Below the pieces are notes generated by a model that saw nothing but the letters and a program-made list of their open reading frames with translations, did no database searches and was not told the DNA's origin. A stretch of 64,000 nt of DNA from Blasia pusilla (Eukaryota). Below, in pieces: positions 3,599 to 35,251 of this stretch. The position numbers and the translations under genes are program-made. The stretch lies in assembly GCA_050084515.1 (NCBI GenBank), contig CM114271.1:1488001-1552000 (forward strand), in the 5' to 3' direction. Numbering within the stretch: position 1 is the stretch's first letter; every line of letters begins with the position of its first letter.

Positions 3599-3653
3599 AT
3601 TTTCTGCCCATGTTACGATGACATTTTCTGCCCATGTTATGAAGACATTTTCT
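3599..3653. repeat. 24-bp tandem repeat, about 2.3 copies
   Basis: ATTTTCTGCCCATGTTAYGAWGAC repeated head to tail. Confidence 0.8.
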
Positions 3654-4931
3654 TGTTGCCCCATTACCATATGGAAGACCAATAAGGCTCCCGTGTAACA
3701 AAGGAATACTATTGACTCTTACGATGGCATGGGACAAGGTGGTGCATACCATGAGACTAATCTATGATGTTCGAACACAATATCCTAGCCCAAAACAAGG
3801 ATACTCAATACCACTAGATCATGGGGACTCACCCATTCTTTGAGGCAATGGGGCCATAATGTGCACCAGGGCCCATTGTAAAAATACACGTGTCACCTAT
3901 TATAACATACTTTAATAGCATGAAGCATGACGAGATATATCATTTTCTTCTTTTTCTTTTGTTTTCTTTTTTTAGGGGGGAAGGAGCAGATTATATACCT
4001 TCTAAGAGATAAAATTTTCCTTTTATTTAGTTCTAGCATATTCATCGTTAGTCTTGAAGGGGGAAGGGGAAGGCTTCAGCACGATTTTCAGGCAGGGCAG
4101 CATACAACTTTACATTTGCTTTTCAATTGTAGCCATACATGAAGGAAACATGTTACCAGCATATGTACTGTTTGCTCCCTATCCCATTGGTTGCGTAGTT
4201 TTTCACATGTGTCACTTGATGAGCATGAAATGATTCACCTAGGCAGCACCTGAATAGTGCATACATAGCGAGCACTGCAGCATTGTGATCATACTGAAAC
4301 AGTAAGCCTTCCTCAAATCTGTCGTGTATTCCAAAACAATTTTGTGATACAAATCAGAGAGAGCATTGTAGAGAAACGCTCGACTAAGTCACATACCTTG
4401 ATGAGATAGTCTGTGGAGCTAGAGCTAGAAAGAAATTCAAGGGGGGCGTATAACACTACATCCCTTGACAAGTTCATTATCAAAAGACCCTTAAACTGGT
4501 CTTTTGAGAAAGTGCATTATGCCCAGAGTTGAGGGACTATTGCAATGGCGTGGAAACCACTGTTCTCGGGAAAACAGTCACAGAGCCAACTAAAATCCAC
4601 AACACATGTCGGAGAACTTGGGCATATATCTACCTTCCATAGACTAATAGGCTGGACATGTACATACAGTTTCTTTCCATGTACTCTCCTGGGACCCTGG
4701 CACTGATATTGATTTTGTGCAATGAAGTACCTCTCAAACTGAGAGAGGCAACCTCTCTGGCAATATAACTTACACTAGGCCTCAATATACTGCAATCTAC
4801 AGTAAGTGATTTCTGTCTCCACTATGAACTATGCTAGATCTCATAGAATATACCTTGGGCTCAGGCTACTCCATATGGAGCACTTATCAGATTCATGATG
4901 ACTTTTAAGGTACAGATTGAAGTCTGGAACA

Positions 4932-7900: not shown

Positions 7901-8572
7901 CTGACCTGCGAAGAGATTCATTCCGACCAAAACGAGCACAATCTCCTGAATAGAACGGCTGCTGATACGGCGAGATGTGATCGCATACCTGAAAAATCGA
8001 ATTTTCTGTGGTTTCGGAACTCCGAGAGTCTCAATAATGTACACCAATGCATCCCGAAGAGTCCCGCTATTGATGACGTTGTTTGGATAATATCGAGAAA
8101 ATCGGAGCTGTCGCTGGCTGTCACAGACCACAAGCTCCCAAATCTTTTTCCCTCGGGTATCCAGTATCGGTCGAGAGCAGAAATCCAACTCCCATTCAGT
8201 GATAGACGACACGTCCGCATCCTCCGCTACACTCTCTTCTTGCCCATCTCCAAGCTCCGCGCTCCGCTCCACAAGACTGCTCTTCGGCAGCACCTGCAGC
8301 TGCGCATTCCTCAGCCTCTCCCGATTCCTCCCCTCTGCTCCCTTAGGCCACCGATTCCGTCCACAATGTTGACTCAAATCGCCAAAGCTTCGCGGAGAAA
8401 CCAAACTCCTGAGAGTCCCAAAACTCGAGCTCAGCCTGTATGCAAGCCCCAGAGGCGCTGCGCATGGCAAGCGTAGGTACGAAGGTGACGGTGTCGAGGA
8501 CGACGGAGACGCCGAACAGCAGCAAGGGCAACAGGCCCGCGCTTGCAAGCCTGCTCCCATTCCAACCACCAT
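4932..8572 (-). CDS. ATAB2: Tab2/ATAB2-family chloroplast RNA-binding protein (photosystem I/II biogenesis), 5 exons
   Basis: Exons inferred with GT-AG boundaries and consistent phase: 7989-8572, 7621-7690, 7280-7451, 6513-6656, 4932-5191. The spliced product has an S/R-rich transit-peptide-like N-terminus, then WELDFCSRPILDTRGKKIWELVVCD, KIRFFRSQMQTIISKAC, WLEERFETVY, GEQWAFVQLP, GVAVASSRATPLAAWTNALE and GLHFIAVQ...GFWLL, all typical of Tab2. Start chosen at MVVGMG (8572); the ATG at 8560 is an alternative. Confidence 0.93.
6163..6430. repeat. Long inverted repeat (~100-bp arms) in ATAB2 intron 4, with the spacer duplicated downstream
   Basis: 6163-6264 is the near-perfect reverse complement of 6301-6402. 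The spacer TTTGGGTTTAGGTAGGTCATGCTTCGTTTCACA (6268-6300) recurs at about 6399-6430. Confidence 0.92.
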
Positions 8573-8604
8573 CCCCTCAATCTCTCTCCTTTTTTTCTCT
8601 CCCA

Positions 8605-8629
8605 CTCTCTCTCTCTCTCTCTCTCTCTC
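8605..8629. repeat. (CT)n/(GA)n microsatellite in the probable ATAB2 5' UTR
   Basis: Uninterrupted CT dinucleotide run just upstream of the ATAB2 start codon. Confidence 0.85.
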
Positions 8630-9603
8630 GTCGTCCTCACAATCTTCAGGGACACTCCTCACTTCTGCGCAATCAAATCCTCTTCCTCCTTCCTCTCCAA
8701 CGCAATCCCCGTCTCCAAAGCTTTCACTGCATCGCTCAATCACTTCCGTTCTTCGCAGAGCACTCACTGCTGTACAGTATCCTTCACCAGAGGAGGAAGA
8801 AGATAGAATCACAGGCCGGGTGACGAGATCCAGGCCCGGCTCAACGCGGACCCAAAACTCGCAGCCAGCTCGGCCCGGTCTGATCTAGGAGCCTGTGATT
8901 GGTGCGATGAGGTAGAGCCGAGAAAGCGAGGCAACCGCTCCCGTTCGGGTTTTTATTTATATCCGCGTAAAATAAGAAATTTTTTTAATTAACTGAATTA
9001 TTTACTAGTAAGATGCCCGGAAAAAAAAATTTGTTTGAAGAGCTAGTGAGAAATTTGAGTGTTAGTGTATAGTCCGTGAAGGGATAGGACTAATGATGTC
9101 GTACACAAATTCAAAAAAAAATTTGGTTGTCCATAGCATGTGAAATATTTTCTTGTTGTCCAATTGCCACGTGTGAAACGAGAGGAGTTTGCAAATCAAG
9201 AATCCACTCTCCTATAATAATATAGACTAGTTATCATAGGATTGATTTTCATGGTGATACCGGAGAGATCACTACGTGTCCTTTGAACCCAGTATGTATG
9301 ACGCATGACATGGGCATTCGGCTAGCCTAACGGGCCGTTTAGGCTTTCGAGATCGTGGAGTGGAGTGGACCGTACATCATACGGTTCCCTCACGGGTCCT
9401 AACCAGTGTACATAATTCAAAGAGGATGGTGTTAAAAAACCTTCTCAAATGATAATTTTCCTTTCAATTCTTTTCGGGTGTTGACACGTGGAATATTTAA
9501 GAGAATAGTTAAGTAAGCGGGCTCAGGACTTAATGGATGTCTTTCCCCTCACCATAGAAAAAGTGGAGTGGAGCGGACTCTTAAATAGAGGGATTCATAG
9601 ATC

Positions 9604-13845: not shown

Positions 13846-16096
13846 ATAGTTAACATTTTTTTAAATATACAAATTTTACTTGCATGTTTATCATGCCATA
13901 ATGCAAAAAATGAAAAACATCTCGCTGTGGATTTGTGTAGGAGATACGTGAGATATATGCATAAGTCAACTCAATTGTTCATGATATTCTTCTATATGCA
14001 TCAACTATATATATATATAATCATTCTAGAAGAACATTAACTTGATTTGTCCAATACCTCTACAATTCGATAAGTGCCATTCATGAAGATTAAATATTTC
14101 TTTCTCAAAGGAATATAATCATAGATTTAACTAGTCATCAAATTTTTGCATGTGTCACAATAAATTTAACCCATACATGCATCACATGGGTTGGATGATA
14201 GTTTTCGAAAAAAGACAATATCTTTATTTTTAGATTCTTGAATGATTACATGCGTTTTGACTTGCACATCATGCAAAATTGAAGTCTTAAATCTACATAT
14301 GAGTATTAGAAAATGCATATATATATATATTATAGTTGCAATACAAAACATCAACTCGATGTTTAAAATGATTGAACATTGAAGTTTTAGGTTAAACATA
14401 AGTTAATTGAAGAAGTGATATATAATGAGAGACAATTTTTTTAATTAGAAGTTGGACTACCAAATACAACCTTCTTTCCATATTAAGGCTATGTCTCATA
14501 AATAAGGATAATTCAAACGTTCTCATCTCTTAGGAGAAAAGAAACTTTGTTAAGAGAACTTTTTTACTCCGAATAAAGAAAAATGGAAGCAAGATTTCTT
14601 TTGAAGATGAAATTCTTGGGAGGGGGCGGTATTTATTTCCCCAAAATAAGGAAAGGAGGATTTTCTAAATGAAGAAGAAAGGAATTGGGAAATAAGGTCT
14701 AGAAACCATGGTTAAGTTTTTCCAAAATTAGAGAAAGAAGTTTTAAAAAAAAGTATGTAGTGCACCTCTTCTTAGTATTTCTAATATTACTTCAAAAAAT
14801 ATAATAAGTTATACAAGCTCAATATTAGAATATGGAAACATGTGGAAGGAAAGGGTCATGTATAGCTAAGTCTATGGCACCCACTTTAGTGGAGATATGA
14901 GAATTGAGTCATGATCGCAAATCCAAGTAGGAGAGACCTTGGTGTAACCCGCCAAAGTGGACATGTATACTAGTTAATTGCAAGACTTGGAAGGAATCAA
15001 CTTCGGAGCTCAAGATTGCATGTGGACAAAGTCGAGGTCCTCCGTTTGACACATGGTGCTACTCCCTGAAAACTCTTTTTGGGGTCCCATAGGTTAGGTT
15101 AGGAGAGTGACATATCATTATGAGTTATTAATAAATAGGGATCAGTGCATGGCACGGTCCTTTGGGGGTTCTAACTAGTGTATTATTGTTCCAAAATGCA
15201 TATAGAACCAAAAGACAAAAATAAACACCTTGACTATCTAAAGAGGAAATGTATGAAAAGAAGGGAAGGCAAATGTCGCAAACCTCATAGCCAAACATGC
15301 GCCAAGGCGGAAGGAACATTGAAATTATAGGGGGCTCACACTATGATGGTTGCGCATTGGAGAGATCTCTTGAAGGAGACACAAGATATGAGACGTGAGA
15401 AAGGTTGATCATTTCATGCATTTATAGTCGCGACGAAGGAAACGTGAAGCAAGATTGGAGAGGAGTCGAGTCTAGGAATATTGGTTACCAAAGAGCTTCG
15501 AAACCGGACATGGAAGGTGATTGGTGTTTGGGTTTTACTATATTTTGGACCACAACTTTCAGATCAAAGATGGGTTTGGGATAACTAAGGTGGCGTTGGA
15601 AAGCTTATGCAAAGCCAGTTCCAACTTACCAAAGATTTAGAAAAGTGCATATGCAAAGGTTGAGAAACTGTCCAAAAAGGACTAAACCAAGAGTTGGGTT
15701 GAGGGCCAAAAGGAGCGGCCCGAGAGTCCTTCTTCCAAAGATAGGGGGAGGGTGGAGAACCCCATAACTACTACTAAGGGGGAGGGTTTCGAAGGGTACT
15801 TGGGACTTGAACTCCACTTGGGGAGCCACGGGGCAAACCGAGGTCACGGTATGGATCGAAAGGTTGACATTGGGATGCAAACCCCTAACCAAGTCCAAGA
15901 GACTGGATTTTGGAGGCCACTCTTGGATTCCAACCCGCAACCCTTTTTTGGGTCTCCATTAGGGACTCATGCAAGATCCATCAAACAGTTGGGACCGCTG
16001 GGCATGCAAACTCTATTTTAGGTGCTTAGACTATCTAGAAAGTATGTCCCAAGTCTAGGAAAACTTGCCCTTATTGGGAAGTGAGGAACTAGGAGG

Positions 16097-18676
16097 TTGA
16101 GCTTGATGAATGGCCAAGTTGAGAACTCGCGGAGTTGGAAGGCTCAAGCGCAGCGAGTTGCACTAGAACTCAAGCTCAAAGAACGTGAGGATGGGCTTGC
16201 GCAACTCCGCCATGCCATGCTAGACCAAGGGAGTGAGGCCGTTGCGGTTCCAGGAGTGGCGGCAGCTGATCCAGTGAATCATGTAGTGGCAAATCAGCAA
16301 GAATCTCCAACTCAAACTCTCTCTTCGGTGGACCGAGCCGTTGAATCCTTACCACAGGTAGAGAGGTGGATATTGAGATGGCCAAAACCTGCAGAACCGC
16401 CAATCTACAATGGCGAGCGGGACCTCAGCATGTTCGAGTTTTGGGAGTTGGAGATGTCACTGTATCTGCAAGGTTTTGACCAAGCGGGATGGTTCATTTA
16501 TGCGTGCTCGCGGTTGGGAGAAATCGCAAGACGTTGGTTGATGGCAATTCAGAGAGAACGTGAAACAGCAAACCAGGCACCCATCGGAACGTGGGAGGAA
16601 CTGCAGCTGTTAATTAGAGCGTGCTTGGTGCCCGCCAATGAGTATGTGGTGCGGCGCAAGGCATTGGAGTCTTTGCGGCAGACTGGCGGTATCCGTGAGC
16701 ACATTTTTTAGTTCTGAAATCTGGCGATGTCATCCGGAATGACGAATGTTGAGGATTTGTGATACCATTTCATCACTGGACTGCAACATTTCTATACCAT
16801 GAAGGTGGAGTAATGGGGAGACAAACTACCGCCACATGCAATGTTCAAGAAGGTGGAAAATGTGGAGTTCGCAAGGCGCAAACACTCAGTTCTAGGACCA
16901 GCGAGGAGTGTTGAGCGTGCACCAAAGTCTAATCAGAGTTGGCGGCCGGTGCGAAGGGGTCACGGGTTCCAAGGTTGCGTCAAATTGGGATCAGCTAGCC
17001 AGTTTAGTACAATAGCGCGCGGAGGTAGCGTCCAACTGCCGCTGAAAACCAGACCTGGTGAATCTTCAGTGGGTTCTGTTGTGTAGAGCGCCGCCCCTAG
17101 GTTTGGCCGAAACACGGCGGCAAGGAGCAAGTCAAGCTCGCCCGGACCTAGGAAAAGGCCCAACTAGGGAGCAGGATCTAGCAGGCCAGCGGATCTACCC
17201 GCCATGTCTGAGGCTCGCCGCTGTTTTCAGTGTGGGCAGCTGGGACACTTCGCCAAAGAGTGTCCCCACGCCACAATGTTCTTTGCGGATGCGAAGCCGC
17301 CAACAGAACCGAGAATGGCGAGTGAGGGGACCAGACTAGCCGCAAGAGCCGCTGATGTGAGCAGAGGTAAGCCCAAAGTCCTTAAAACTTTGAATCGTTA
17401 TTTGCCTTGGGTGCGTGTTTCCATTAAGGGTGAAGCCATGTATTTCTTGTAAGATATTGGCACAAACGTGAACATTTTTAATCATTCAGTTAGTGCCAAG
17501 TTGGGTCTTAGTGTCACCAAGATAGTGCAGCCCATGACAGTTCGATTCGCCCAAGGGTCAATCCAAGTAGATCACAAGTGTTTGGACGAGGCATGGGCAG
17601 TTCTGTTGTTGCACACCTCCATGAAACCTCAAACCAGAAGATGCGCCGATCCACAAACATATGCAAGACCTGTTAGACGAGTACTCGAGTACTCGGACAT
17701 CATGTTGAGTGCGCTTCCCCTTGAACTACCACCCCCACGTGCACTCGATCATAAAATTGACATACAGCCAGACACAAACATCCCTAGCATGGGGCGGGGT
17801 TGGCGTTTGACATGCACGGAGATGGAAGAGTTGAAGACACAACTCATTGAACTCCTGAATAAGAACCATATTCCCCCAAGCATGTCGCCTTACGCCGTGC
17901 CAATCATGTTTGTCGCCAAGAAGGACGAGACTCTTCAAATGTGCGGAGATTACAAGCCCTCAACAAAGTCACCGTTAAAAATAGATATCCCCTCCCGCTG
18001 ATGGAAGAGACCATGGATTGCCTTGCCACGGAGAGATTCTTTACCGAACTTGATCTCAGATTGGGTTATCACCAAATCCAAATTCCTGAAGGCCATTAGT
18101 TTCAAAATCGCGACCAAAATGCACTATGGACTTTACGAGTACGTGGTGCTGCCGTTCGGTTTGACAAATGCCCCCGCCACATTCTGCACGTTCATGAATG
18201 ATTTTTTTTCGTCACTTGTTAGACGTTTGTGTGATTTTTTACCTGGATGATATTATCGTGTTCTTCCCTACTTGGGAGCAACACTTGGTCAACGTCAAAG
18301 AGGTTTTGAAACGCCTTAGGCGCGAGAAACTGTACGTCAAGAAGAGCAAATGCTCCTTTGTCCAGCGAAGTGTGATGTTTTTTGAGTGTTTGATAGACCA
18401 CGACGACATTCACCCAAACCATGCCAAGGTCTTGGCTTTGGTTGAATGGTCGAGACCCAGCAACCTCACTGAGTTGCAAGTGTTTGGCGACATATTTTCG
18501 GAAACATGTGCATATGTTTGCCAAGGTTTTGGTCCGCTCCATGAGTTAACTAGGAAGAACGCATCGTTTCACTGGGCACCCAAATAGGAACAAGCATTTA
18601 TGTCATTGAAACAGATCTAAGCACCGAGCGTGTGTTGGCGCTCCCCAAACTGGCGAACCGTTTGAGATTGATACGA
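16097..18676 (+). mobile_element. Ty3/Gypsy LTR retrotransposon gag-pol, degenerate and truncated within RNase H
   Basis: Gag-like ORF 16097-16711 (PPIYNGERD...WEEL...LRQTG), zinc knuckle CFQCGQLGHFAKEC (~17220), protease remnant FL*DIGT, RT motifs SPYAVPIMFVAKKD, LPFGLTNAPATF and YLDD (~18240), then RNase H start FEIDT cut at ~18676. Many stops and frameshifts. A possible LTR start (TGTAAC) lies at ~14944, but no LTR pair was seen. Confidence 0.9.
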
Positions 18677-19443
18677 ACGGGGGGCTAGTATTCTTGCAGG
18701 AGAGAGGAAGAGAGGAGAGTCTCTCTTCAAAAAAAAGGGCCAAATCCTTACACTCTCTTCAAAACTTTCATCAACTTTTTAGGTTTATCCCCTACTTCAA
18801 ATGCAATAAATCTTTGAAAGAGAGTAAGAAGTGCACCACTTTCGGGGAAAAAGTAACCACATTTTCTCAGACCAAGATGTGAAGATGGAAATATTATCGT
18901 CAACAATTAGTCATGAAAGTGCAGGAGTGTTTTGCTTCTCCCTCTTGCTATAGAGACCAATCTCCCATCATCGAAAAAGTTATAGGTGGAATTTGGGTAT
19001 TGTTGGGCAAAACAAGGAAAGTAAAAGTAAAATTAAAGATGATTTGTGGCAACATACTCGACCAAATTAGGATAGGTCACCAACTCAGATGAGTTGGCAT
19101 CTCTTCGCAGAGTGCAAATAGTTGCTTCCTCTTCCCCTGGAGTGGAAGAATGTTTCGTCCACTCTGCCAAACGGCTCTACCACTCGCCCTTGAAAGCCTC
19201 ACCATATTTCGGATTAAGTTACCTATTCTCGAGCAAAGCTTCACAAGGGTCTTTCTCAATGTCCGGGAATTTTCCCTCCCTCGAAACACAGTCCATAAAA
19301 TATCCTAGGGGCATATTTTAGACCTTTGCTCATATGAGTAGTGGCCTATACTCTAACGGGTTGGACCGACATTTATTCAGAAACCTTTGTTCGTATCAAC
19401 TGGCGGCCCTCAATAGCACTCCTCCACAGGCTTCCTCTAGACA

Positions 19444-20397
19444 TGCAACCCGTCGGAAATTGACAGGTTCCGACTGCTTTCAATCATTCGGACCTAGAAA
19501 CATTAAAAGAACATGGCTCATAAGGAGACCTCAAAAAGGGCTCAGAAGGAGACCTCCAATGGCTGCCTGCAGACAAGTAACCAATCAGAAACCGACATGT
19601 TGCAATTGCAGGCAATCGTCTGGACCTGCAGCCAGCCAATAATCCGGACTGTGGAGAATCTTGGATTCTGAGAGGTTGCATGACAGGAAAAGGATTCATA
19701 AGGGTTAAACTGCTATGCAGACCTATCATGTTCAATAGAGTTTTTACGCATGACATAACCTAGGTACGAAAAAAGTTATAGAGGGAAGGAACCCAAAACT
19801 TCACAATAGTCAATTTAGACATGCAACTTATCCGAATTCAACCAGTTGAATCACATCAAGAAATAAAAAAGGGTTGAAAAGGAGAGCTTCACAAGCTGCA
19901 CCGAGAAATGCAACTTATCGGAATCCGACGGGTTGTAGGGATAAGTTGTCAAGATAAGTTGTGCTGATCTTCCCGTCGCAAATATCGCAAGACCGAGAAT
20001 TTCTCCATACATCTTCAATCATCGACTTCCATTCTCGGCTTGCAACTCGTCGGAATCTAGTAGGTTGGAAGATGGAAAAAAATGACAACCTAAAGGAGAA
20101 ACCAAAACGCGGACCTTTCAAGTCAATAAGAATTAGTTTGCAACTTCTCGTAATTCAAAATATCGCAAACTTAGTTTCTCATTTGCAACCCGTCGGGTTC
20201 CGACCGGTTGCAAACCTTGTCCACTACAATTTGTCGGAATTCAAGAAATTCCAAACTCAGTCCATGGTCCCTCATTTGTAACCCGTTGGAAACTAACAGG
20301 TTGCAAAACCAGGGCTGTGGTCTGCAACTAGATCGTAATCCGACAGTCTGCACAATTGTTCTCTAGTTTGCAACCCATCGGAATCCGACGGGTTGCA
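19444..20397. repeat. Cluster 1 of the 29-bp palindrome TGCAACCCGTCGGA-N-TCCGACGGGTTGCA
   Basis: About 10 degenerate copies, e.g. at 19909, 20184 and 20369. Confidence 0.85.
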
Positions 20398-21468
20398 AAA
20401 TAAACAACATCGAGTATATAGATCAACACAATCGACAAGAACGAGCTTTGTACACAAAGAAGCAAAATAATTCAGCAAAATTTTACAGAAACCATCATTG
20501 TGCAAAAACTTCTTGTCCTTTAATACATTCGAGGGAAGCTTGGAAATTTACATTTGATCTAGTCTATGATTTTTTCAGCATCCTCATCTACAAATTTACT
20601 CCTAACTCTCCTAGGTTCCTGAACAAAAGGAATGTCTTGGGATACAAGCGGCTACTTTGGCCGATTGAAGACGGGGATTGAAAATATTGGGGAATTCGAG
20701 AGCCTTGTCCCCCCCTAGGTACACCATAACAGTCCCATGTAAGAGGATTTCAGTCCCAACGCCTTCCCCGACAATAAATCTTGCGTGCTCTGCAAAGTGA
20801 CACCCATCTAGTATCAATCTGTGCTCCGCTGTTTGAAACCAATAAATGCCAACTCCAAAAAGCTTCAATCAAGCTGGCTCCGATAAATCTTTGAACTCAC
20901 TTGTCATCATCCGAGAGCTCTTGCAGTATTACTGTCAACTTTGCCCTCTCGATTTTCAAAATTGTAGGAAGTGACGATGGTATCACTATCAATGGTGGCT
21001 TTGGAGCTAGAGTAGTTGGCTTTCGAGGCAAGTTGTATACTCCCACAAGCCTCTTGTTATCCGCCTTTGCCTCTTTGCAAAGTTCAAAAAGTTCCGGCCT
21101 TCCCTCAAGGCAGAGAATGTTCCTGCAACTCTGCCAGACACCTCTGATACTCGCCCATGATAGGCCCACTAAGTCAAAGACCAAGTTCCCTCAAGGCAGG
21201 TGACTTCTCCCTTCCTCCAAGTAAGGGGGTCCCTTCCTACATGAAAATTCCTGGGGGGTGGGGGGGATTGTAGAGACTATCTAAGTTGTACCCATCGGAG
21301 CATGGATCCATTGCATCCGGGATTTGGAACACCTAGAAGTTGTGCTTGGGCCTAAAGAAGCAGTAGAAAAATGAGTGGTCCATCTATGAACAAGCAGGTG
21401 GAAAATAATGTCAGAAAAAAGCAAAAGGTAGTAGACCGCTGGTCTACTCTCCATATAGTGACACAATG

Positions 21469-21974
21469 TGCAACCCGTCGGGATCCAACGGGTATCTCAT
21501 TTGGCTAGACACAAGAGTAACCTGTCGGAGTTCGACGGGTTGCTTTACACTCCAACAGGAATCTATGGTGATTAGGAACCCGACGGGTTGCTCAATTGGC
21601 TAGAGAGAACAGCAACTTGTCGGAGTCCGACGGGTTGCTATACAACTCAAAAAGGATTCTTTGCTGATGAGCAACCCACCGAAACCCGACAGGTTGCTCA
21701 TTTTGTTGGACAGAACCACAACCTGTCGGAGTCCGATGGTTGTCTTACAACTTGATCGATGTGCTCCTAGTTGGAAAGTCCATAATATGAAAGCAACCCG
21801 TTGCTTTTAGACGGGTTGCATCACTGCAGACACAAGTGGAAATGCAACTCTACTTGCAACCGGTCAGGTTCCGACGGGTTGCAATCACTGGAGACTAGTA
21901 AGTGAATTTGCAACCTGTTGGGTTCCGACGGGTTGCATGCAGAGATGCAACCCGTCAGATTCCGATGGGTTGTA
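21469..21974. repeat. Cluster 2 of the 29-bp palindrome (putative intron)
   Basis: About 10 copies spaced roughly 37-75 bp apart, e.g. at 21469, 21611, 21854, 21909 and 21946. Confidence 0.9.
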
Positions 21975-23800
21975 TTTTTAAACCATCTCAATTCGTTCAA
22001 AAAAGTGAAGTTGGAAACTTTCGCGGACTTGATTCGTCGCCGATCTGAGTGGGTACTCATTTTTTATGACCCACAATTACGCCGTCCTCCACTTGAGCGA
22101 CCTCTTCACGTATTGAAGGTTGAAGTGGTTGTCTTCGCTCCCTCCACTCAGGACCAAGAAACAACCCCTGTCACTGAGATAAGCGTCATCGAAAGAAAAC
22201 AACAAAGCGATCTGGTCAAAGGAAAGTAGAACATTCCAGTCACGGACAATGTCAACGAATTGTTGTCCCACAAACAAAACCCAGAAGGAAAATCTGCAAT
22301 GAGGAGGTCCATCACCACCTCCTCAATGACCCCATGCACCGTCTAGGGGATGTGACCGTTTCGGAGGAGTTTTTGCCCTTACATGGTCAACTTCTCAATG
22401 GCAATTGTCAAATCGTGAGAACTGAAACTCTGCAGTTCATGGACAAGATGAGTCAGGTGAAGAAGGAAATTTGGCATGCTAGTTGTTTCCTATGTCTGCC
22501 CAAGGATGATGGAGTGTATTCCATATCCTTATCTCCTCCCTCGGACAAACCAAGCGCCTCCCGCTTTCGATTCTCCTGAGTGTGTTGTCGCCTTGTTGGA
22601 GTTTCCGTTACCTCAGACTCCACTGGCGTTTTCTTTGACAAGGACCTGGTCTGGCCTTCTCGCCTATAAGACTTTGCCTCTCGCCTTGAATACTCAACCT
22701 CTTTTCTTGAAGACTTGGCCTCGGAATTCCTGGACCCCCTTGCCTTTGCTTTCAAACCCGCTGTAGATTTGTCCTTGGTGGTGACGACCTTTGCCACAAA
22801 CGTTGTTGTCTCGATGGCTTGCTCCTCCACATCTCCTTCGAAAAATTCGTCCAAGATTCATGTCGTCCCTGGCAGCGACCACTGCATCATAGACCACGCG
22901 CAGATTCTTGTCTGTTATCTCCTCCGGGTCGTTGAAGTCCAACCAGATTTGACAATTTGATACCTCCCAGTCGGACATGCCTTGCCCCTTCTCCATGTTG
23001 GACATGGAGAATCCCTCTCCATCAGGCGGAGAAGCCCATAATTTGCAGGCTACCAAAAATTTTGCCAAGTATTTGCATTCACACAATTTATGAGGTACCT
23101 GTACACCATCCATTGGGAGCTCTTTCTCGGGATGACTCGGCCGCCTGCTCCTGAAGATCCCGCTTCTTCTTTGCGAAATCCAATTTTTGCACGTCTATTT
23201 CCTCGTCCAGATCTGCCTGAGGGAGGATGTGATTCTTGAACATCATCCGGAAGCCTGGGTTTTTTTCGGCTTATCTATGATGTCATCAAGCCACAATTCA
23301 AAATCTTCTACAGCCTCTAGGTTTGCTTCTCTGGAACTGGCTCAATCTTCATCAGCTTCGCTTGTAGACCCACGATCATCAATTTCCCAAGAAAGCGCAA
23401 CGCGTCCTAGAATGACCATTCCCATAGCCAATGGGAGATCAATGGATTTGATACTCCCGGAGGGTGGTAAGTTGCCCGCTTCTGTGCGTCGGTATCCTCG
23501 AGACTGATTTTCATCAATCGGATTTGCCTAAACTCGAATATGCCGGCCAATGCAAAATTGTGCAGACCGTCTAGAGACACTTTCTCTCCAATTTGATGGA
23601 TGAATCTTGGGAGATGAAGGTATTTGCCCAACTCTTCTTCTTTATTTGAGCTCCCTTTGCGAGCATCTCATCGACCCAGGAATCCCTTGTACTCTATCGG
23701 GTGCTAAGCACCTTCTTGACCCTGTCACAATCCTCAATCCAATGGTGGGTGCGTTCCCCTCGGATACAATCCTTCAAATCCAAACACAAGGTTAGAATAC

Positions 23801-24753
23801 TGCAACCCGTCGGTTTCCGTCTGGTTGCACGAGAGAGTCATGAACAGAGAGTGCAACATGTCGGACTCCGATGGGTTGTAACACTCTCGGGAGATTGTAA
23901 GGATGCCCAATCTTTCAGAGTTCGATGGGTTGCAAAAATTTCTTTGACTTGCAATCTCTTTGACAAAAAATGTATATTCTGCAACCCGTCGGAGTCCGAC
24001 GGGTTGCACCTCTGTCAACCCATTGGGGTCCAAAAGGTAACACATTGATGTCCTTTGACATGAAGTGATGTAATCTGTGGGAGTCTGAGGGGTTGCTGAA
24101 TGACTCTTATTCCTTGGATCCAACCTGTTGGACTCCCACGAATTGTAAAATGACTTCAATTCCGAGTCAGGTTTCTGGATGAAAATTGGCCATCGCAATC
24201 CGTTGGACTCCCACGGGTTGTAAAATGACTTCGATTTCGAGTCAGGTTTGTGGATGAAAACTGCCCATAGCAACCCGTCGGAGTCCGACGGGTTGCCCAA
24301 TGGCCCTGTTAAGTAGTAATTTGAAGCCTAAAAGCAAGCTGTCAGACTCCGAAAACTTGCCCTTGGGGGAAAATGCAACCTATCGGAGTCCAACAGGTTG
24401 CTTTCGACCAAAAGTTTCCAAGAAATAGGGTATAGTCCAACAACTCGTCAGACTCCGACGGGTTGCTTTAAGGCCTCGGATGATTTCTTACCCCTCATTG
24501 AGCAACTGGTCGGAGTCCGACGGGTTGCAGAAAAAATTAATCATGCAATCAATTTTCAACCCGTCCAAGTCCGACTGGTTGCAGTATCTTGGATTAATCC
24601 GGGTAACTTGCCTACCAAGCAACCCGTCGGACTCCGACAGGTTGCTGGACTTTACCCAAAACCTCAATGAGGATGGAGTCTAGAGAATCAAATCATTCAT
24701 GCCCATCTTCAATCTTTCCAATTATGCAACCCGTCTGATTCCGACGGGTTGAA
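23801..24753. repeat. Cluster 3 of the 29-bp palindrome (putative intron)
   Basis: About 13-14 copies, including a perfect one at 23980-24008. Confidence 0.92.
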
Positions 24754-26395
24754 GCAATCAAACATAAGGATCAAGAAACTTACGTATTCATTGCATGCAT
24801 TGCCATTTCCATCGTTTCCATGTGATGAGGAAATGGATGGAGCACGACTGACCTCAAGCAGAAATGGGCCTCCAATGAATTTGGGCGCTCCTCTGCAAAC
24901 TGCGTCCATGCCATGTTCTTGTGGTTCCCATCCCAGATGAAGAAGTAGAGGTTCCGCATCCAACTATATTGGGTTCCTTCAATAGCTCTTATGAACTCCT
25001 AGTCTCTCATCCTCGAGAATGTGGCCAAGCCTCCAAGTCTTCTTCCGTCACGAGAGCATGCGTTCCATGTTTATCGCAAGGCTGAACATAGAAGGGAGGG
25101 AAGTTTTCAACGTAGGATGTTGTCGCTACCGACTACTTCAGCTTTGCAATGTCCTCCTCCGACTGAATTTCGCGGACGTACTCCATTGTCCGCAGTCGAC
25201 AAAGTGGAATTCTTGGGGACTTTTGGCCGTCCATCATTGCCATCTTCTTAACAACCTGCCACAATGGCGATAAAGTAAATAAGCGGTTGTTACAATTTTT
25301 TGCCAATTTTTTGCATAATGAGATTTCACATAACCCGTATTCTTCTTACCCGATCAAAGATTGGGTCGGTGTCCAAGCCGGCCAACTGCTCTAGGACAGG
25401 AGCTGGCAAGTCCACGGGAAGCTCATCGATCCGATAAAGGTCGATTTCTTCCAACGGGCTCAATGACGATGACGACTCTTCTCCTGTTTCTTCGAAGATG
25501 TCCACCATCTCCACACATGCGGTCCTCATGACCTCGTCGTCTGTCATTTCAACTGCAATCGTTTCCTCGGTCATTTTTAAATTCATGGTGTCCCCAGACC
25601 TCATCGGAGACATTTCTTGCATCTCAACACTATCCGTTGGACAGGCAAGGCTTTCTTCAATGGCGATGGCTTTTTCCCTTTGAGCTTTCACCAACTCTGC
25701 TTTCGTGATGGAGGCGTCGAGACGCTTTTTCTCGGCTTCTTGTTAGCGACTCTTTCTTCAAGGCCTTTGATGCCTCAGCCTCCGCGTTTTGCTTTGCTAG
25801 CTCCTCCATAGCAAGCTTTGCCAGAACCTCGTGCATGTGCATTTCTGCTTCCCTTTCCCGCTCCTCTAATTCTTGTTGCCTTATCTCATTCGCCGAGCGA
25901 GGACCACGAGATGGAGCTGCAGGAGTCCTGATGGACTTGGGAGTGACGCTCCCTACCTTCGTTGCTTGTGTTTTCTCCCTCGTCATGGTGCATGTTGAGT
26001 CAGTCCTTCTTCCTCATCAATGTTATCTGCTCTTGTGCACGACAGACCCCTCAAAGCTTCGATGGAGTGCCTTAAACCAACTCTCCAAACGTTGTGTGGT
26101 GAAGCGCCCTCACCTTCCAACGGAGGGGCTTGCCTAAACCAAACTCTTGAAGCATCGTGTGCTGGAGCGTCATTACCTTCCAGCGAAGGGGCCAAAGTAA
26201 CCGACATGGTCAGCGGCCAAGGAAACGTTAACAACAAGGAGGAAGAGCTGCAATTGAAATCCCGGAATGAAGAAGGGAAATGAGCAAAATCTCAGCCTTT
26301 TCTACTTTTTGAGTCGTTGATTCGATGGTTCGTTTGTGGGAAGCGTTGCACCGATGGCGACGTCGGCCGCTACGGTGCTTTGCATGTGGGAAACG

Positions 26396-27182
26396 TGCAA
26401 CCCGTCGGCCTCGTCGGACATGCAACCCATCGGTCTCTGACGGGTTGCACGCTTCCCTCGTCTTGGGGTAACAAGGCGAGGTACCCGGGCAACCCGTCGC
26501 TCTCCGACGGGTTGCCTGCTTCCCTTGTCTTGGGGCAACAAGGCGAGGTCCCCAAGAAATCCATCAGTCTACGACGAATTGCACAGTTCCCACCATACTG
26601 CGAAACCGAGGCGCGGTCTCCGAGCAACCTGTCTGTCCCTCACGAGTTGGACCGTTCCCCCGAGAAGGGAAATCGAGGCAAGATCCTCGAGCAACACGTC
26701 GATCTCCAACGGATTGCATGGTTGCCTCGACAAGGAAAATTGCGGCGAGGTCCACTTGCAACCCGTCGGTCCCCGATGGGTTGCACGGTTCACTCGACAA
26801 GTGAAATCAAGGCGAGATCCCCGAGCAACCCGTCAAGGATCGACGGGTTGCACGGTTCCCTCCAAAAGGGAAAGCGAGGCGAGGTACCTTTTCAACCCGT
26901 CGTAGTCCGACGGGTTGCCGTAGGAAATCCATGCGAGGTCATGCGCATCCCGACTCCGACGGAATCAGACAGTTTGCACAAGCAGGGGGTACCGACGGAC
27001 AACCGCGTTCAACCCAAGGGACTCCGACGGGTTGCAAGTCGCACTGGGACTCTGACGAACAGGGGGACTCCGTGGCTTTGCAACCTGTTGGGTTCCGACG
27101 GGTTGCAACTTGTCCGAGTCCCAAAATTTGCAACTCGTCGGACTCCGACAGGTTGCGACTTGTCGGAATCCGACAGATTGAA
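26396..27182. repeat. Cluster 4 of the 29-bp palindrome, partly in a ~67-68-bp higher-order tandem array
   Basis: Copies at ~26422, 26490, 26558, 26625, 26691, 26758, 26825 and 26893, separated by related spacers containing AGGCGAGG(T); further copies extend to ~27180. Confidence 0.9.
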
Positions 27183-27615
27183 CCTTGTTCATGGCTAATT
27201 AACCTTTGGCAATCGGCAAACTTGCAACGAGATCAATCTCAGGGGAATCCAGAGCGTCACACAATCTCACCTACCAACCAACAACTTGTCAGTCGATTTC
27301 TGTCAAGAGAATAACAATCACTATTCACTATAAATTAAACATTTTATTTTTTATTTTATTTTCATTCTCCTCCTGGTGGAATTATTTGGGAATGGATAAT
27401 TATGTGAAACTCACCCGTGGCAATCATCTACGGGCCCTTCCTCAATCACAAATAATTCGACCGCAAGCTCGTGAGTCTTACATAGCAGTGGAGGAAAATT
27501 TCCTCTCATTGCGATTTCTTCTCCAAATTGGAACAACCTTTGTTTCTAAGGATGTTAGGGTAGACGGTACGGAGGACGTCGTAGGTGAGACAGTCTAGCC
27601 AATGATTGTAAAATA

Positions 27616-28229
27616 TGGAATCTCCTACCTCACACCAATGGTCAATACAGAGTTTAAGGCTTGCTTGTGAAGCCCTTTGTTTCCCAAGCATACGGTCTGG
27701 AATTTCCTAGTGCACCGAGCTCTACGTTTGCCACTCCCAGCTCTGTAGATCCGATATCGACTCCAACTTCACACGTTCGTGACAATGTTGTACTTCATGA
27801 AGAGATTCCGGATGTCGTCGACCTCATTGGATTTGTCGAACACCAACCGGGCCTTGCCTCTGCCTACTCGTTGCTCTTGCAAGTTTCGGGCAATAGTTTG
27901 CTATTGTCATTGCCCTTTACATTGTTCAAATACATTCTTGTCGACGAACTCCCACCCACGTACGATGGTAATTGTATTTTTGAGTTGCTTCCACTTGTCA
28001 ATTCTGCTCAAAAGAAGAATGGAGTACACTTGAAGGATATGAACAGAAAATCTGACTGTCAACATTAGTGCAAACTTCAACGAAATAATGTTGACTGTCA
28101 ACATTAGTGCAAACTTCAACAAAATGATGTTTCAATTCCTGTGATATTTGCATTGTTTCTCGCCATCAATGTGCTGGAGCTCTTGAATGTAGAAATTCAA
28201 GTTGCCTACATGTAGAACGCAATGGATGA
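27616..28229 (+). pseudogene. N-terminal fragment of a putative zinc-finger transposase-like protein
   Basis: VDELPPTYDGNCIFELLP...LKDMNRKSDCQH*CK then, after a 39-bp duplication, RHQCAGALECRNSSCLHVERNG*. The CxGxLxCxNxxC pattern resembles the GCM/WRKY-like N-termini of MULE-related transposases. Truncated, with no DDE domain visible. Confidence 0.45.
28053..28130. repeat. 39-bp tandem duplication
   Basis: TGACTGTCAACATTAGTGCAAACTTCAAC.AAAT.ATGT occurs twice. Confidence 0.9.
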
Positions 28230-29382
28230 GTCAATACGTTGCCATTTTCTCCAAAGAATGCACAATCTTTACATGAGATCGGTCCGACCTTACCACTTCA
28301 TTATTAAACTTCCCCTTTTGGCATTCATTTTTGTGTAACATTCATATAAGCTACAATTCCATGTCTGAATCCAGAATATCAACAATTCATATCAGCTCCC
28401 AAATTCATTTATTTTTGAAGCCTTTCATAACCTTATCTTACGTTCTTACCTTCATAAAAGGATGTGACAAAGAAAATTGTGACAAAGAAAATTGCCCGGC
28501 AAATCTACAATCAACATCAAGTGATTTGATCTTGTAGATCGAATGAGGCAACTATGCCAAATTCTTATCCGGTTGCTTTTATTAATCAAACATTTTATTA
28601 TTACAACTTTGTCTTAGTCTTGCCAAATTTCTTTCATCATATTTTCTTATGTTCTATATTATTGTATGATGATAATGCCTTCATCATCATAAAAAGAAAG
28701 TGAATTGTTTTTTCACTCTTCTTTTTATTTTTCAATTTGAATTTATGTATGGTATATTCACAATAATCTGACATACACCCACATTCCTTGCATACTTTTC
28801 TCACAAGTGTTTGTTCGAGATTTATCTCCTGTATGGAACAAGTTAAAATCATTCCTCAATGCTCGCAATTAAAGGCGATTGCAGGAACATGTCAAATTCC
28901 CTAATCCATCTCGATTTCCTCAGCCAGCGAATTAGGTTCTACCTACTCTTAGGGCACATATCAGATGACTTCACAGTTCAGATCACACGGACGATTGGGT
29001 ACAATCAATCATGCGATCAATATCATAAACTGAACAAGAACATGCTGGTTAAAGACTTTCAACACATGATCACAACATAAGCGCAAATGTCCATTCTCCT
29101 GTTCCCAACGAGTCATATACAATCTATCATTCAATTCTTTCTTCACAAAAATTATATCCCGGAAAAGACTCTTAATAATATGTTCATTCCACATGCTTTC
29201 TTACCCTACAATAAAATTCCTCCTATTCCCAGGACACATCAGATAACTTCACATTTGAGATTCCACAATCATTGTGCAGCAACTAGATCCGAGATGACTC
29301 TTGGCCATATAAAATTGTATCAAAAATGATGTCGACAAGACAGTATAACTAGCCGTGCACCTTCACCCTGGATTTTTCACCC

Positions 29383-31727
29383 CTAGGCTGCTCTTTGCGC
29401 AGCTTCTTTTGCCAAAACCTTTTCCCTGGCCTTGGTCTTGGCCTGGGACTTGACGCCCATAATGCCTCCTCCCCATTGCTTGCGGTACTCATCGTACTTG
29501 TCGTTGAAGTTGGCCTATGGAATGCAAACATAAGACGCATACTCGTTTAGGTGGATGGCGAGTAGATATAGCAGTACGATAAATGTGAATCAAAAGACGA
29601 GCAAACTTAGCTGCAAATTCAAAAAGATGAGGATATCACCTTGACTGCTTCCACAATTTTGCTAAAGTCGTGCTTATCCTCGTTCTTCACTGAAGTCAGG
29701 CAGAGTGCCGAAGCAGTCCTGCTGTGAACGATCTGTCCGAGACGGGACTTACCCTTGACGATGGCATAGGGCACGCCCATCTTACGGCACAATGCAGGCA
29801 GCCAAACGACCAGCTCGATGGGATCCACATCATGTGCAATTACGACGAGCTGAGCCTTACCCTGTGCGGAAAGGGAGCAGTAAGCACGCAATTACAATGA
29901 TGGGCGTCTTCCGAGTGCTTTCAAAACAGTGACACACCCTGAGAGGTACTGTTCCACGAGATATCCATAGATCTCAGAGGATATCCACAAACTAACGAGG
30001 ACTCCAACTACCATGACCGGCTTTAAGTGATGGAATCTTAATACCAAAGGTTTCACCAGAGATCACTTGAGTCGACCAAGGATAAAGGCGGGTGCAAAGG
30101 TGGGTGGCGCAAATTGACAGCCAACAGGTGGGTACCTTGAGTTGAAGGGGACACCACGTATATCCAGGTGCGTGAGGTGATGGAGGCTAATGTGGATGCT
30201 CAGTTCTCAGCGACGATTGCCATATCACTTTATTTTGGCCTGATCTTGGTTGGAATACCCGCACTTTGCAACTAAATTCAATTTTTCATCTGAGGATTAG
30301 ACCCAACGCCGGAGCTTTTGCATAGTCAGAGCTGTATTGGTGTCCGGCGAGTGGCTCATCTCCCATTCCATTATGGCATGAGGCAAGACGTCAGAAACTA
30401 CAGCTTCTCTCCTAACACAATCCCGAATAATTTCTAAAATAAAAATCTCTGGAAAACCCTCCTACGGAAGTGAATGGCCCGTGCCACGTTTCAAGCGTTC
30501 ACAAGTACGAGTCCCAGTTATCTAAATAAACGAGTGATACAAAATGCAAAACGTACAGAGTGGGACAAGAGTTGGCTTACCTGCTCAATCAAATACGTCA
30601 CGTGGTTAAGGCCGTACTTCACGACGATGGGTTTCTTTGTTTCCACCGTCTTGCCCTCAGCCTCGGCCTTGGCCTTGTTAAGGAGACGCTCCTTCTTGGC
30701 AGCCTTGTCTTCTGGCCTATATTTCAGGAGCATCTTGAATAAACTCGCAGCTGCAGTAAATCCAGACCCAGTATTAAATTGGAGTAGATCGGACTACTTG
30801 GGATACAGCAGCTCTTCCTTCGACTTCCCCTGATGTCACTAAGGCTGAGACCTACACCTCTACCTGCTCGACGTCTCTACATCTAGTGTGCCTTACTACA
30901 TGCTGATCACAGAACTATGTATCGGAGGCCAGGCACAGTGTAATGTCAAGGGCGAAATCCTGTCGAAAAATGACGGATGGAGATGAGATAAAGTTGTCCA
31001 AAACTGACCTAAATTCTTGTCAAGACACTTCGTGAACTGATTAAGTGCAGGTGGCACTTTCAGTCGCTGATTTAAGACACGGCGTTGCCTTTGAATACGA
31101 ACATACTTGGGCCACTTCACGAAACGGTGAAGATCCTTCTTAGGAGGAAGGGCACCACCAATACCAAACTGCTTAGGGCGCTTCTCAAATAGAGGGTTCA
31201 CCACCTTCTCCTTGACCGCCACCTACATACGACAAACTCAGATTAGTCGGGATTTCTTTGCTCTCTCTGTCTCTCTATCTCTCTCTCTCTCTCTCTGTGA
31301 GGAGGGGAGGAAAACACACCTTTTTCTTCTCAACTGGCGCCGGAACGGTGGGCTTGATGGTACCCCGCTTCGGAGCCTGCGCCAAACGCACACATGGACA
31401 TTGGCATTAGATGCAGCTCTGTCCAGTGCCATGGGGAGACGCGCACACATGGACATTGGCACTAAATGCAACTCTGTCCAGTGGCCACCAAGATGAGATT
31501 GCCATCATCCCTCAGTGGGGATCAAAACACATGAACATTGGCACTAGATGCAACTCTGTCCAGTGCGCCCACTGAGACGCAATTTCCCATCAAAACCCAT
31601 CAAAACCTCCACACGATTCACAGCTTCGCCCATTGGCGCCCCTCAATCCTCAAACTTCAGCCCACCAGAGCACCGATCCACCCATCGCCCAACCGATCCA
31701 CCCGAGGAAGGGAGCGACACGCACCAT
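29383..31727 (-). CDS. RPL7A: 60S ribosomal protein L7a (eL8), 6 exons
   Basis: Exons: 31725-31727 (ATG only, followed by GTGCGT donor), 31320-31376, 31009-31222, 30581-30750, 29640-29861, 29383-29514. Product: MAPKRG...[38 protein letters not shown]...[45 protein letters not shown]...[13 protein letters not shown]...stop. Placement of the ATG exon is inferred. Confidence 0.96.
31389..31570. repeat. Three copies of a ~42-bp hairpin-forming motif in RPL7a intron 1
   Basis: ACACATGGACATTGGCAYTARATGCARCTCTGTCCAGTG at ~31390, ~31445 and ~31527 (third copy has GAACA). Confidence 0.9.
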
Positions 31728-34049: not shown

Positions 34050-35251
34050 ATGGATGATGATTTTGAGTTAGATGCGTGCCTTTCTATAATGCTTGTGCTA
34101 TCTCAAATGATTTCCACTTCCACTCTTCATAGTCTCTTATGTTTACATTTGTCGAATATGACAAAGACTTCTTCATGTTCGAGGTTGGGTCTTTGGTATA
34201 TAAAACCAAGATCTATAGGGTTTACAACTCTCTTTATTGATGACAACATTGTGCGGAGAGATAATCCCTTGCGTTTCAAGGAGTTCTTTTGAATCTCAAT
34301 TGGGACATTTGATTTGATTTGTGATATATTGAGAGGTCGCTTGACTTCAAACCCTCCAACGACATTGCAACAATTATCGAATAGATTGTTAAGTGTTAAG
34401 AGACAACTAGCAATCACTCTGCGTCGTCTTGCCACAAGTGATCAATTATTGGGGATTGGAAAACTCTTTGGTCTTGGACGCTCCACTACCGCTAGATTTT
34501 TCCATAGAGTAATCGATGCTCTTGTGGAAGTGGCTCATGGAGTTGTGAGTTGGCCAACTCGAGCACAATTACAAAGAGTCAAAGAAAGCTTTGAAGCATA
34601 ATATGGATTCCTCAATTGTTGTGGTGCAATAGATGCCACTCATTTTCTCATTGACTTACCAACGAGTTCAAATGCCACATCATGGTATAGTCATAAAAGA
34701 GTAAATCTTACCCATGTGCCATGCAAGCTGTTGTGGATTCAGAGTTGCGATTCTTAGATGCATTTGCAGAATATCCACCTTGTATTCATAACACACGACT
34801 CCTTCAAAACTCTGAATTATACAAGAAAGTAATTCAAGGAGAAAGGTATTTGATTGGTCCTTCGGTTCCATTGAGATATAACAAGAGCACTCGAAAGTAT
34901 ATCATTGGTGATGCAGGATATCCGTTATTACCTTGGCTCATTGTCCCTTATCCAAGAGCAATTGGTCGAAAAGAGGAATGGAATTATCTCCATTCTTCCA
35001 TGCCCATGTATGTGGAGAGAGATTTTGGAGGATTGAAAGGAGCATGGCTCGTACTCAACCGACACATTTATCATCCAAACTTAGAGCGATTACCAAAGAT
35101 GATTGTTGCTTGTTGTATCTTGCACAATATCTTGATTGATAGACAAGATCATACACCTGATACTCTCTTTAGGACTGCAAGACCTCATCCACCTGGGTTT
35201 CAAAGTTTTGTACCTAGCAACATAGTCACACTTAATGGAAGAGCTAATTGA
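34050..35251 (+). pseudogene. PIF/Harbinger DDE transposase (HARBI1-like), with stops and a frameshift
   Basis: W...RS...FKEFF*IS..TFD.IC, QLAITLRRLAT, FGLGRST, GF.NCCGAIDATH, MQAVVD...F, IIGDAGYPLLPWLIVPY, VER.FG.LKG.W, ACCILHN. Confidence 0.92.

Follow-up and report, generated by a model that had tools for sequence, protein, structure and literature searches.

By analogy, the closest precedent for the locus described here is found in the red alga Bostrychia, in which giant Plavaka (EnSpm/CACTA) elements and other elements carry the accessory genes PAG2, with a PF01555 and a SET domain, and PAG3, with a ParB-like domain and a 2-oxoglutarate (2OG) oxygenase domain. The passages of the preprint that deal with these genes name Plavaka, Mutator, Zisupton and Fanzor-encoding elements as carriers, place tandem inverted-repeat arrays next to PAG3, and propose that PAG3 binds its own element (bioRxiv 10.1101/2025.02.11.637652). 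The present locus lies on the minus strand of a 64,000-nucleotide stretch of Blasia pusilla DNA (contig CM114271.1 of assembly GCA_050084515.1, positions 1,488,001 to 1,552,000; hereafter the window, numbered from its first letter). A preliminary description, made from the letters alone, had read it as a spliced gene at 20897-25986 that joins a ParB-like domain to a beta-class amino-methyltransferase-like domain and is carried by a plant DNA transposon. Our analysis indicates that this span is probably a pseudogene, one decayed copy of a family with many genes in bryophyte-type plants, whose members combine a ParB/Srx-like and a beta-class methylase-like domain.

As far as the two systems can be compared by description, they share PF01555 and ParB-like modules in large repeated elements, inverted-repeat arrays, and copies that are mostly degenerate. 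The red-algal domains, however, are placed in separate proteins with SET or 2OG oxygenase partners, whereas the bryophyte-type family encodes one polypeptide with a different middle, and for the bryophyte-type lineage no transposase or element class has been identified. Fusions of ParB_N and N6_N4_Mtase (PF02195 and PF01555) in phages and plasmids have the same domain order as the plant family, whose motif X-I region aligns to phage methylases. The phage fusions are 400-490 aa long with canonical motifs, whereas the plant proteins reach about 1100 aa, with an insert of about 500 aa, introns and degenerate motifs IV and I, and their ParB part escapes the Pfam ParB models. The nearest named Atlas look-alikes are phage ParB_N and N6_N4_Mtase clusters (0.84-0.85), which we treat as a lead only.

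Amino-methylases with a bacterial-type permuted domain, among them N4-methylcytosine (4mC) enzymes of the PF01555 type, are also encoded by eukaryotic genes. Marchantia MpDN4MT1a/b carry TSPPY (preprint 10.1101/2021.02.12.428880) and, according to the bdelloid paper, have no added N- or C-terminal domains, and the active bdelloid N4CMT has a C-terminal chromodomain. As described in the passages on these enzymes, they resemble the present family in their permuted domain and differ from it in keeping a TSPPY/SPP-type motif, in having been shown to be active, and in being single or tandem host genes rather than many-copy; the available texts on DN4MT1 and N4CMT contain no occurrence of 'ParB'. 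The comparison with Marchantia that the preliminary description proposed fails at the motif level, since TSPPY there stands against [DN]xPx here. The relevant passages of Iyer et al. 2016 describe chlorophyte-type Dam methylases, which in some chlorophytes and chytrids have an N-terminal HTH (helix-turn-helix) of the ParB type, and a haptophyte clade 6 derived from phage ParB-Tls loci, with no mention of land plants (PMC4738411). These enzymes are likewise eukaryotic amino-methylases tracing to phage ParB-linked loci, although they are Dam/M.EcoKI-like or FHA-bearing and their ParB element is an HTH, whereas the window family has a ParB/Srx domain. Finally, a phage ParB-like protein is described as activating a thymine dioxygenase on double-stranded DNA (PNAS 2026, PMC13229309). 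The likeness as far as described there is that an enzyme modifying DNA is served by a protein that has the nucleotide-binding N-terminal domain of ParB but no obvious domain for binding DNA; the activator differs in being a separate protein, with another partner enzyme, in a prokaryotic viral system. Our literature search found no published description of a bryophyte ParB-methylase family, although supplementary files, including the Bostrychia curated-element tables, may hold relevant sequences.

The relatives of the window gene show how its two ends belong together. A profile of the phmmer matches described below found a 1147-aa protein of Ceratodon purpureus (P0017; E 1e-88), which has a 661-aa paralogue (P0018) with 57% identity, both annotated as ordinary genes on two Ceratodon chromosomes. 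The database names in the family are 'hypothetical protein' and, for P0018, 'DNA methylase N-4/N-6 domain-containing protein'. Intact members such as P0017 begin with an acidic tail, which is followed by the ParB/Srx-fold domain with its DGNHR loop and then by a conserved middle of unknown fold; they end in a beta-class N6_N4-type amino-methyltransferase-like domain. Scanning metagenome contigs with a smaller alignment (A3) yielded 179 relatives, many of them visibly decayed, and 80 loci falling into 53 near-identity groups were kept. Methylase-like open reading frames (ORFs) occur in 44 of the 80 loci (24 of 53 groups), invariably 1.1-4.7 kb downstream of the ParB-like match and on the same strand; seven loci with at least 4 kb of downstream sequence have no methylase-like part, and 29 are too short to tell. 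The middle region was detected in 72 of the 80. A phase-2 GT donor following ...MHDINK is located at the same position in all seven moss loci examined and in the window. The end domains are homologous across the family and, in other copies, collinearly linked. The preliminary description had made its proposal depend on either fold being found and on collinear co-occurrence in other copies; as described below, a ParB/Srx fold and a PF01555-type domain are supported in relatives, and the two parts are collinear in each of the 44 loci in which both were detected.

Relatives were also sought outside plants. Among 69 pattern matches from 185,579 prokaryotic species genomes the only relative was L081, a 4.7-kb contig of an 'uncultured Synechococcales' metagenome-assembled genome with an intron-bearing copy at 552-4100. 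Because of its eukaryote-type introns and its 98% identity to the metagenome contig L004 over 1708 bp, we do not count it as prokaryotic, and the contig is most likely misbinned plant DNA. When P0018 was compared by tblastn with phages (22 records) and plasmids (117 records), the motif X-I region alone matched; the four records inspected for ParB fusions are stand-alone methylases of about 220-240 aa. It could be supposed that the span is the relic of an integrated virus, either a giant virus or a phage-like element, that brought in the ParB-methylase gene. Such an origin would agree with the abundance of ParB_N and N6_N4_Mtase fusions in tailed phages, where they are commonest among the Atlas look-alikes (again a lead only), and with the phage ParB-Tls source that the passages seen in PMC4738411 give for one eukaryotic methylase clade. 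We consider it very improbable all the same, given that the 203 pattern matches among IMG/VR viral contigs include no relative, that spliceosomal introns sit at shared positions, and that the ORF list and Pfam reveal no other viral gene in the block.

The N-terminal part was examined at the level of both sequence and fold. An exhaustive phmmer search of 1.84 billion proteins with the 72-aa DGNHK exon gave 12 proteins at E<=1e-3 (best 7.4e-9), all of them short gene-model fragments sharing FF(V/I)WDGNHR..AW and one of them a hypothetical protein of Riccia sorocarpa. By tblastn, residues 225-382 of P0017 align to 25258-25025 and 25013-24786 of the window. The fold was evaluated on a relative's model, not on the broken window copy: the AlphaFold model of the N-domain of L003:434-1036, based on 35 sequences including translated metagenome ORFs, has a pLDDT of 85.7 and a pTM of 0.79. 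The best Foldseek rows for this model are Noc (E 0.022, prob 0.99), plant and human sulfiredoxins, PadC, ParB-CDP, SerK, SbnI and KorB. In the VIA structure search, which is independent of Foldseek, eight chains reach a Z of 5 or more (range 5.0-7.1; rmsd 2.6-4.2; 79-101 residues aligned). Every one of them is a ParB/Srx-fold protein, and after them Z falls to 3.2. With a confident model and ParB/Srx proteins alone at the top of both fold searches, the ParB/Srx-like assignment of the N-part stands, and the model supports a ParB/Srx fold with the DGNHR form of the DGxHR motif.

In the WDGNHR loop the D, G and N residues are nearly invariant (at least 90% of 35 rows), H and R are conserved in most rows, and the window reads DGNHK. 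The G-x-x-R type phosphate-binding loop is represented by GERR in ParB, GCHR in Srx and DGQHR in DndB. From its position in the model, without residue-level superposition, the DGNHR loop would correspond to this GxxR loop. DndB (PF14072) is also the most frequent weak Pfam match, sub-threshold in three of the 35 members with a best E of 0.028. Searches with the window's own letters were less productive: three window pieces compared with Protein Data Bank (PDB) sequences by phmmer gave chance-level rows only, and the read-through ParB N-part in its 'longer' lengths gave no scoring candidate (0 of 8) in the word-indexed protein search.

For the C-terminal part, the assignment comes from the full-length relatives. 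P0017 passes PF01555 (N6_N4_Mtase) with 30.4 bits over profile positions 2-217 of 221, and P0018 with 35 bits, the gathering cut-off being 26.7; none of ten single window ORFs reaches the PF01555 threshold or has anything relevant in Pfam. The window pieces are tied to this PF01555-type family only through a family methylase hidden Markov model (HMM), built iteratively from P0017, P0018 and ORF fragments of related loci. Its top three among 2199 window ORFs (>=20 aa) are 22080-22322 (E 0.001), 19080-19304 (E 0.018) and 20900-21190 (E 0.42), all on the minus strand, as are the ParB exons, and downstream of them. In pairwise comparisons the post-IV strand scores z 3.1 against P0018 (1 of 200 shuffles as good) and the motif I piece of the last exon z 3.2 (1-2 of 200). 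By tblastn, P0017 residues 1084-1119 fall at 21190-21083 (E 1.7) and residues 1066-1112 at 19277-19137 (E 0.007), the latter being an unexpected second copy of the last exon. The family profile aligns with three phage beta-class methylases in hhalign at a probability of 96.7% (E 3.5e-10), over motifs X-I only. The C-part is thus beta-class amino-methyltransferase-like, as had been proposed. The beta permutation is likewise present, motif IV preceding X and I. In P0017 the motif IV region spans 903-912, the X-like motif follows at about 1063 and motif I at about 1087, and along the window's minus strand the succession is equally 22342 > 21262 > 21190.

Beta-class amino-methyltransferases have (D/N/S)PP(Y/F/W) as their catalytic motif IV. 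In an alignment of 15 rows the corresponding forms are DTPF, DQPY, DVPF, DIPF, DYPE, DIPE, DVPR, NVPG, NVPS, DILD and DILF, the remaining rows being truncated or misaligned there, and the window has DFPS; the PP pair occurs neither in the readable rows nor in the window. Motif I in the family reads D-L-(S/A)-A-S-T-G-A-S, D-C-H-A-M-T-G-E-S or D-W-N-A-S-T-G-T-H, with one glycine kept, and in the window D-L-V-G-L-S-W-A-S, with none of the glycines of FxGxG, compared with D-P-F-G-G-S-G, an FxGxG form of the DPFxGSGTT type, in the three phage methylases. Decay may affect many of the metagenome copies as well, but the two intact Ceratodon proteins also depart from the canonical motifs. The motifs are therefore as divergent as the preliminary description had judged. 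Catalysis is doubtful because a motif IV of the [DN]xPx form and a motif I without FxGxG are found across the family. Judging from these residues, we think that most members may bind rather than methylate, and whether any intact member still methylates DNA seems to us doubtful rather than outright unlikely.

A more specific possibility is that intact copies are active transposon-borne amino-methyltransferases that deposit N6-methyladenine (6mA) or 4mC in the DNA of the element or of the genome, their ParB part serving as the targeting module, and that only the window copy is dead. The PF01555 scores of both Ceratodon proteins, the good alignment of motifs X-I to phage methylases, the phage look-alikes in the Atlas, and the motif IV of P0018 (DQPY) and P0017 (DTPF), with D-x-P-F also kept in L045 and L065, are in line with this. 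Set against it are the absence of a canonical motif IV in all 15 rows, where the aromatic position is mostly E, S, G, R or D, and a motif I of the xASTGxS rather than the FxGxG form. We regard this possibility as unlikely.

The window copy of the ParB-methylase family itself is disrupted. All peptide strings quoted in the preliminary description are present on the minus strand at their places, according to the ORF list and the sequence: IPLCRL...VRE...IAKLK in ORF 25133-25345, FFIWDGNHKNMAW in ORF 24780-24998, DLLIADFPSG in ORF 22148-22342, WNVLLSF...FSFDDAYLSDRGCFLVL in ORF 22077-22322, and VFDLVGLSWASIRGVWQSCRNILCLEG inside ORF 20897-21190, with REKSP just upstream of it. The broken frames between them had been joined as splices. 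This may hold in part, as there are three canonical-looking sites in the sequence (donor GT 25349-25348, acceptor AG ending at 25256, donor GTAAGT at 24783), but several of the other breaks are frameshifts or stops. Three defects of the ParB-like exon fall within one conserved domain: the codon 25133-25135 is an in-frame TAG, there is another stop, and the frame shifts near 25010. More frame changes are found at about 25657-25742, 22694-22857, 22148-22342 and 21190. Because stops and frame changes sit inside conserved domains, the window copy is a pseudogene and makes no functional protein. The span given at first is correct at its start, where the frame opens with ATG 25986-25984, but the unit is larger, with the second last-exon copy at 19080-19304 and dyad arrays from 19439 to 27156. 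The two last-exon copies are alike at the protein level only, and a blastn self-comparison of 17500-29000 found no long duplication besides the arrays.

The remaining coding-like parts of the gene are less informative. The first coding block has no Pfam match and no detected homology to the gene family, and for the middle ORFs neither relatives nor Pfam matches were detectable. The string MSDWEVSNCQIWLDFNDPEE had been matched by eye to a W..HL..C.WY.E motif of the family; we do not retain this match, as the central-region HMM has no match to the window gene.

The gene lies within a highly repeated block. Two DNA runs of one organism, with small shares (0.07 and 0.05), provide 4329 and 3755 contigs that cover the block at 80% likeness or more, with likeness of 80-99%. 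The end bins, 18000-18350 and 28179-28500, have a summed depth of 4-8; in the bins between, it ranges from 5 to 2276, with a dip to 5-34 across 19053-20105. Since the coverage by contigs is thousands-fold, the block of about 10 kb at 18351-28178 is a high-copy repeat. A truncated long terminal repeat (LTR) retroelement remnant on the plus strand (16085-18135; gag, then reverse transcriptase (RT) up to about 18135) ends shortly before the block, and its continuation past the block was not found. Short tandem duplications are present at 28053-28130 (two 39-nt units, 95% identity) and 31387-31565 (three 42-nt units).

The block also contains palindromic repeats. The 12-mer CCGACGGGTTGC occurs 40 times with at most one mismatch, against 0.08 expected, and 22 full 27-nt dyads, in which two inverted 12-mers flank 3 nt, were counted against none expected, all of both within 19445-27156. 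The dyads form four arrays: one upstream of the start codon, one in the intron that follows the ParB exon, one separating the methylase-like blocks and one downstream of the gene. Repeats of another kind stand near the ParB-methylase gene in the moss locus pairs L044/L047 and L068/L069, namely AT-rich arrays in which 11-mers recur 13-17 times. With sides of 20-45 letters at 80% likeness, the joints between the window's arrays are not taken here as deletion derivatives.

The repetition bears on whether the family is mobile at all. It could instead be a non-mobile host gene family, descended from an old, horizontally acquired ParB-methylase gene that was repeatedly duplicated, the window holding a decayed paralogue in repeat-rich DNA. 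The annotation of the two Ceratodon genes, the conserved intron position, which argues for long residence, and the fact that no transposase was found near any locus are compatible with such a history. It accords poorly with a block covered by thousands of contigs in two runs, with 179 metagenome relatives among which decay is frequent, with paralogue pairs in moss loci that are 76-80% identical over 11-16 kb including their non-coding flanks, and with dyad arrays typical of mobile elements. We consider a purely host-borne family quite improbable. The claim that the gene is carried by a DNA transposon is borne out as far as the block is highly repeated and no further: its transposon class is unproven, because neither a transposase nor termini were found. 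For a candidate end motif at 18751 we could find no inverted counterpart, and the flanks of L018 contain short ORFs only. A fragment of a PIF/Harbinger-type DDE transposase is encoded at 34697-35251 on the plus strand (DDE_Tnp_4 E 4e-18, Plant_tran E 2e-7), about 6.5 kb outside the repeated block and linked to it by no evidence.

Several observations weigh against reading the locus as one ParB-methylase gene of a repeated element. With respect to the methylase part, exon-wise Pfam searches of the relatives gave PF01555 matches in only two of ten, both sub-threshold; the window pieces are individually weak (E 0.001 to 0.42), and DLLIADFP by itself does not reach significance, 57 of 200 shuffles scoring as well. 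The middle region of the family is not detectable in the window gene with the central-region HMM. As for the ParB part, none of the 35 members matches a Pfam ParB family, PF02195 included, at E<=1, and a profile of alignment A2 did not find ParB in PDB sequences; a first fold, made from the same alignment with P0013 as target and 16 sequences, was discarded as poor (pLDDT 49.6). The Foldseek E-values are weak, none reaching 1e-3, and the VIA Z-scores stay below 8, a range the tool calls common; the fold case therefore rests on how uniform the top rows are, on the drop beneath them and on the DGNHR loop. With respect to the element, scanning of the block ORFs found no transposase, the window yielded neither terminal inverted repeats nor a target-site duplication, and none of the three turned up in the related loci; among 72 ORFs of at least 150 aa in the 80 loci there is no recurrent neighbour, these ORFs being compared without a Pfam scan. 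The moss loci showed no dyad arrays in an 11-mer count, which over 50 loci of at least 9 kb gave no comparable motif, and the link between ParB and dyads therefore rests on one lineage and on analogy. In canonical partition ParB an HTH domain for parS binding follows the N-domain, the C-terminal domain serves dimerisation, and ParA is the partner; parS is bound by the HTH domain and not by the ParB/Srx domain, the kind recognised here.

A function for the protein may be proposed from this anatomy and by analogy. The protein would be an accessory factor of a mobile or repeated element, and its ParB-like part would load it onto the element's own 27-nt dyad arrays, in the way that ParB loads onto palindromic parS. 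Loading would in turn bring the methylase-like part to the DNA of the element. The binding step of this self-recognition, suggested by the layout and by the analogy, is a tentative idea that leans to the unlikely side. Still more speculative, and improbable as it stands, is a full ParB-parS analogue borne by the element, in which a ParB/Srx-(pseudo)methylase would recognise palindrome arrays across its own locus (promoter, introns and 3' flank) and, by nucleotide-dependent loading or spreading, might mark, shield or partition the element DNA.

Table 1. Positions of the parts of the window gene, the dyad arrays and the repeated block in the window.
Feature	Coordinates	Strand	Evidence and remarks
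First coding block, K/E- and D/E-rich	25350..25986	-	Two overlapping frames, 25657-26013 and 25326-25742 (one frameshift); ends at donor GT 25349-25348
Putative 94-nt intron, GTAAGA...CAG	25256..25349	-	Read from sequence
ParB/Srx-like domain exon, IPLCRL...FFIWDGNHKNMAW...AMHAMNT	24784..25255	-	tblastn with P0017 residues 225-382, E 7e-13; phmmer matches; fold of relative
GT of GTAAGT donor, phase 2	24782..24783	-	Position common with moss relatives; GT at same position in 7 of 7 moss loci examined
Dyad array inside intron after ParB exon, 27-nt dyad GCAACCCGTCGG-NNN-CCGACGGGTTGC	23800..24756	.	Repeat search
Middle coding-like ORFs, 22694-23194 and 22453-22857, in differing frames	22453..23194	-	ORF list
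Methylase-like N-half: motif IV region DLLIADFPSG (22148-22342), frameshift, post-IV strand FSFDDAYLSDRGCFLVL (22077-22322)	22077..22342	-	Family methylase HMM, E 0.001
Dyad array separating the methylase-like coding blocks	21468..21977	.	Repeat search
Last exon: REKSP (motif X-like, shortened), frameshift, motif I region VFDLVGLSWASIRGVWQSCRNILCLEG, stop	20897..21262	-	tblastn to P0017 1084-1119, E 1.7; HMM E 0.42
Dyad array downstream of gene	19439..20400	.	Repeat search
Second, diverged copy of last exon, RENSRTLRKTLVKLCSRIGNLI...ASGRAVWQSGRNILPLQG	19080..19304	-	tblastn with P0017 1066-1112, E 0.007; z 8.0; family HMM E 0.018
Dyad array upstream of start codon, in part made of 67-nt tandem units, each with one dyad	26397..27156	.	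Repeat search
Highly repeated block, approximate extent, edges not resolved to the base	18351..28178	.	Contigs of two DNA runs

Two further features of the window lie apart from the repeated block. A Ty3-type LTR retroelement at about 44000-51000 contains, between its gag-like and RT parts, an ORF at 47706-48260 on the minus strand with the motif-I-like string RVLDLFGGISNGL. All 30 of its PDB sequence matches are C5 DNA methyltransferases of the DNMT3A/3B/3C or DRM type, each of them sub-threshold (E 0.017-0.99), and it has no Pfam match at E<=0.01. Judged by its sequence, this ORF may be a retrotransposon-borne DNMT fragment, and such fragments are of a known kind. The window also contains, at 7784-8884 on the minus strand, an exon of a Tab2/ATAB2-like RNA-binding protein (PF06485, E 1e-21), which is an ordinary host gene of photosynthetic eukaryotes.

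The family is an unannotated protein family, abundant in bryophyte-type genomes, whose genes contain introns and unite two modules that handle DNA in prokaryotes. As a case open to experiment, it could be either a plant source of 6mA or 4mC that is new, or a former methylase that has become a pseudoenzyme binding DNA. In annotation, PF01555 matches in mosses should not be taken as active N4/N6 methylases until motifs IV and I have been checked. Together with the accessory genes of the red-algal Plavaka elements, the family suggests that ParB-like domains, PF01555 domains and palindrome arrays may form a recurrent tool kit of large repeated elements in eukaryotes. If the proposed recognition of the dyads is true, a mobile element of plants would recognise itself by a device assembled from phage components, independently of the usual small-RNA and 5-methylcytosine (5mC) pathways.

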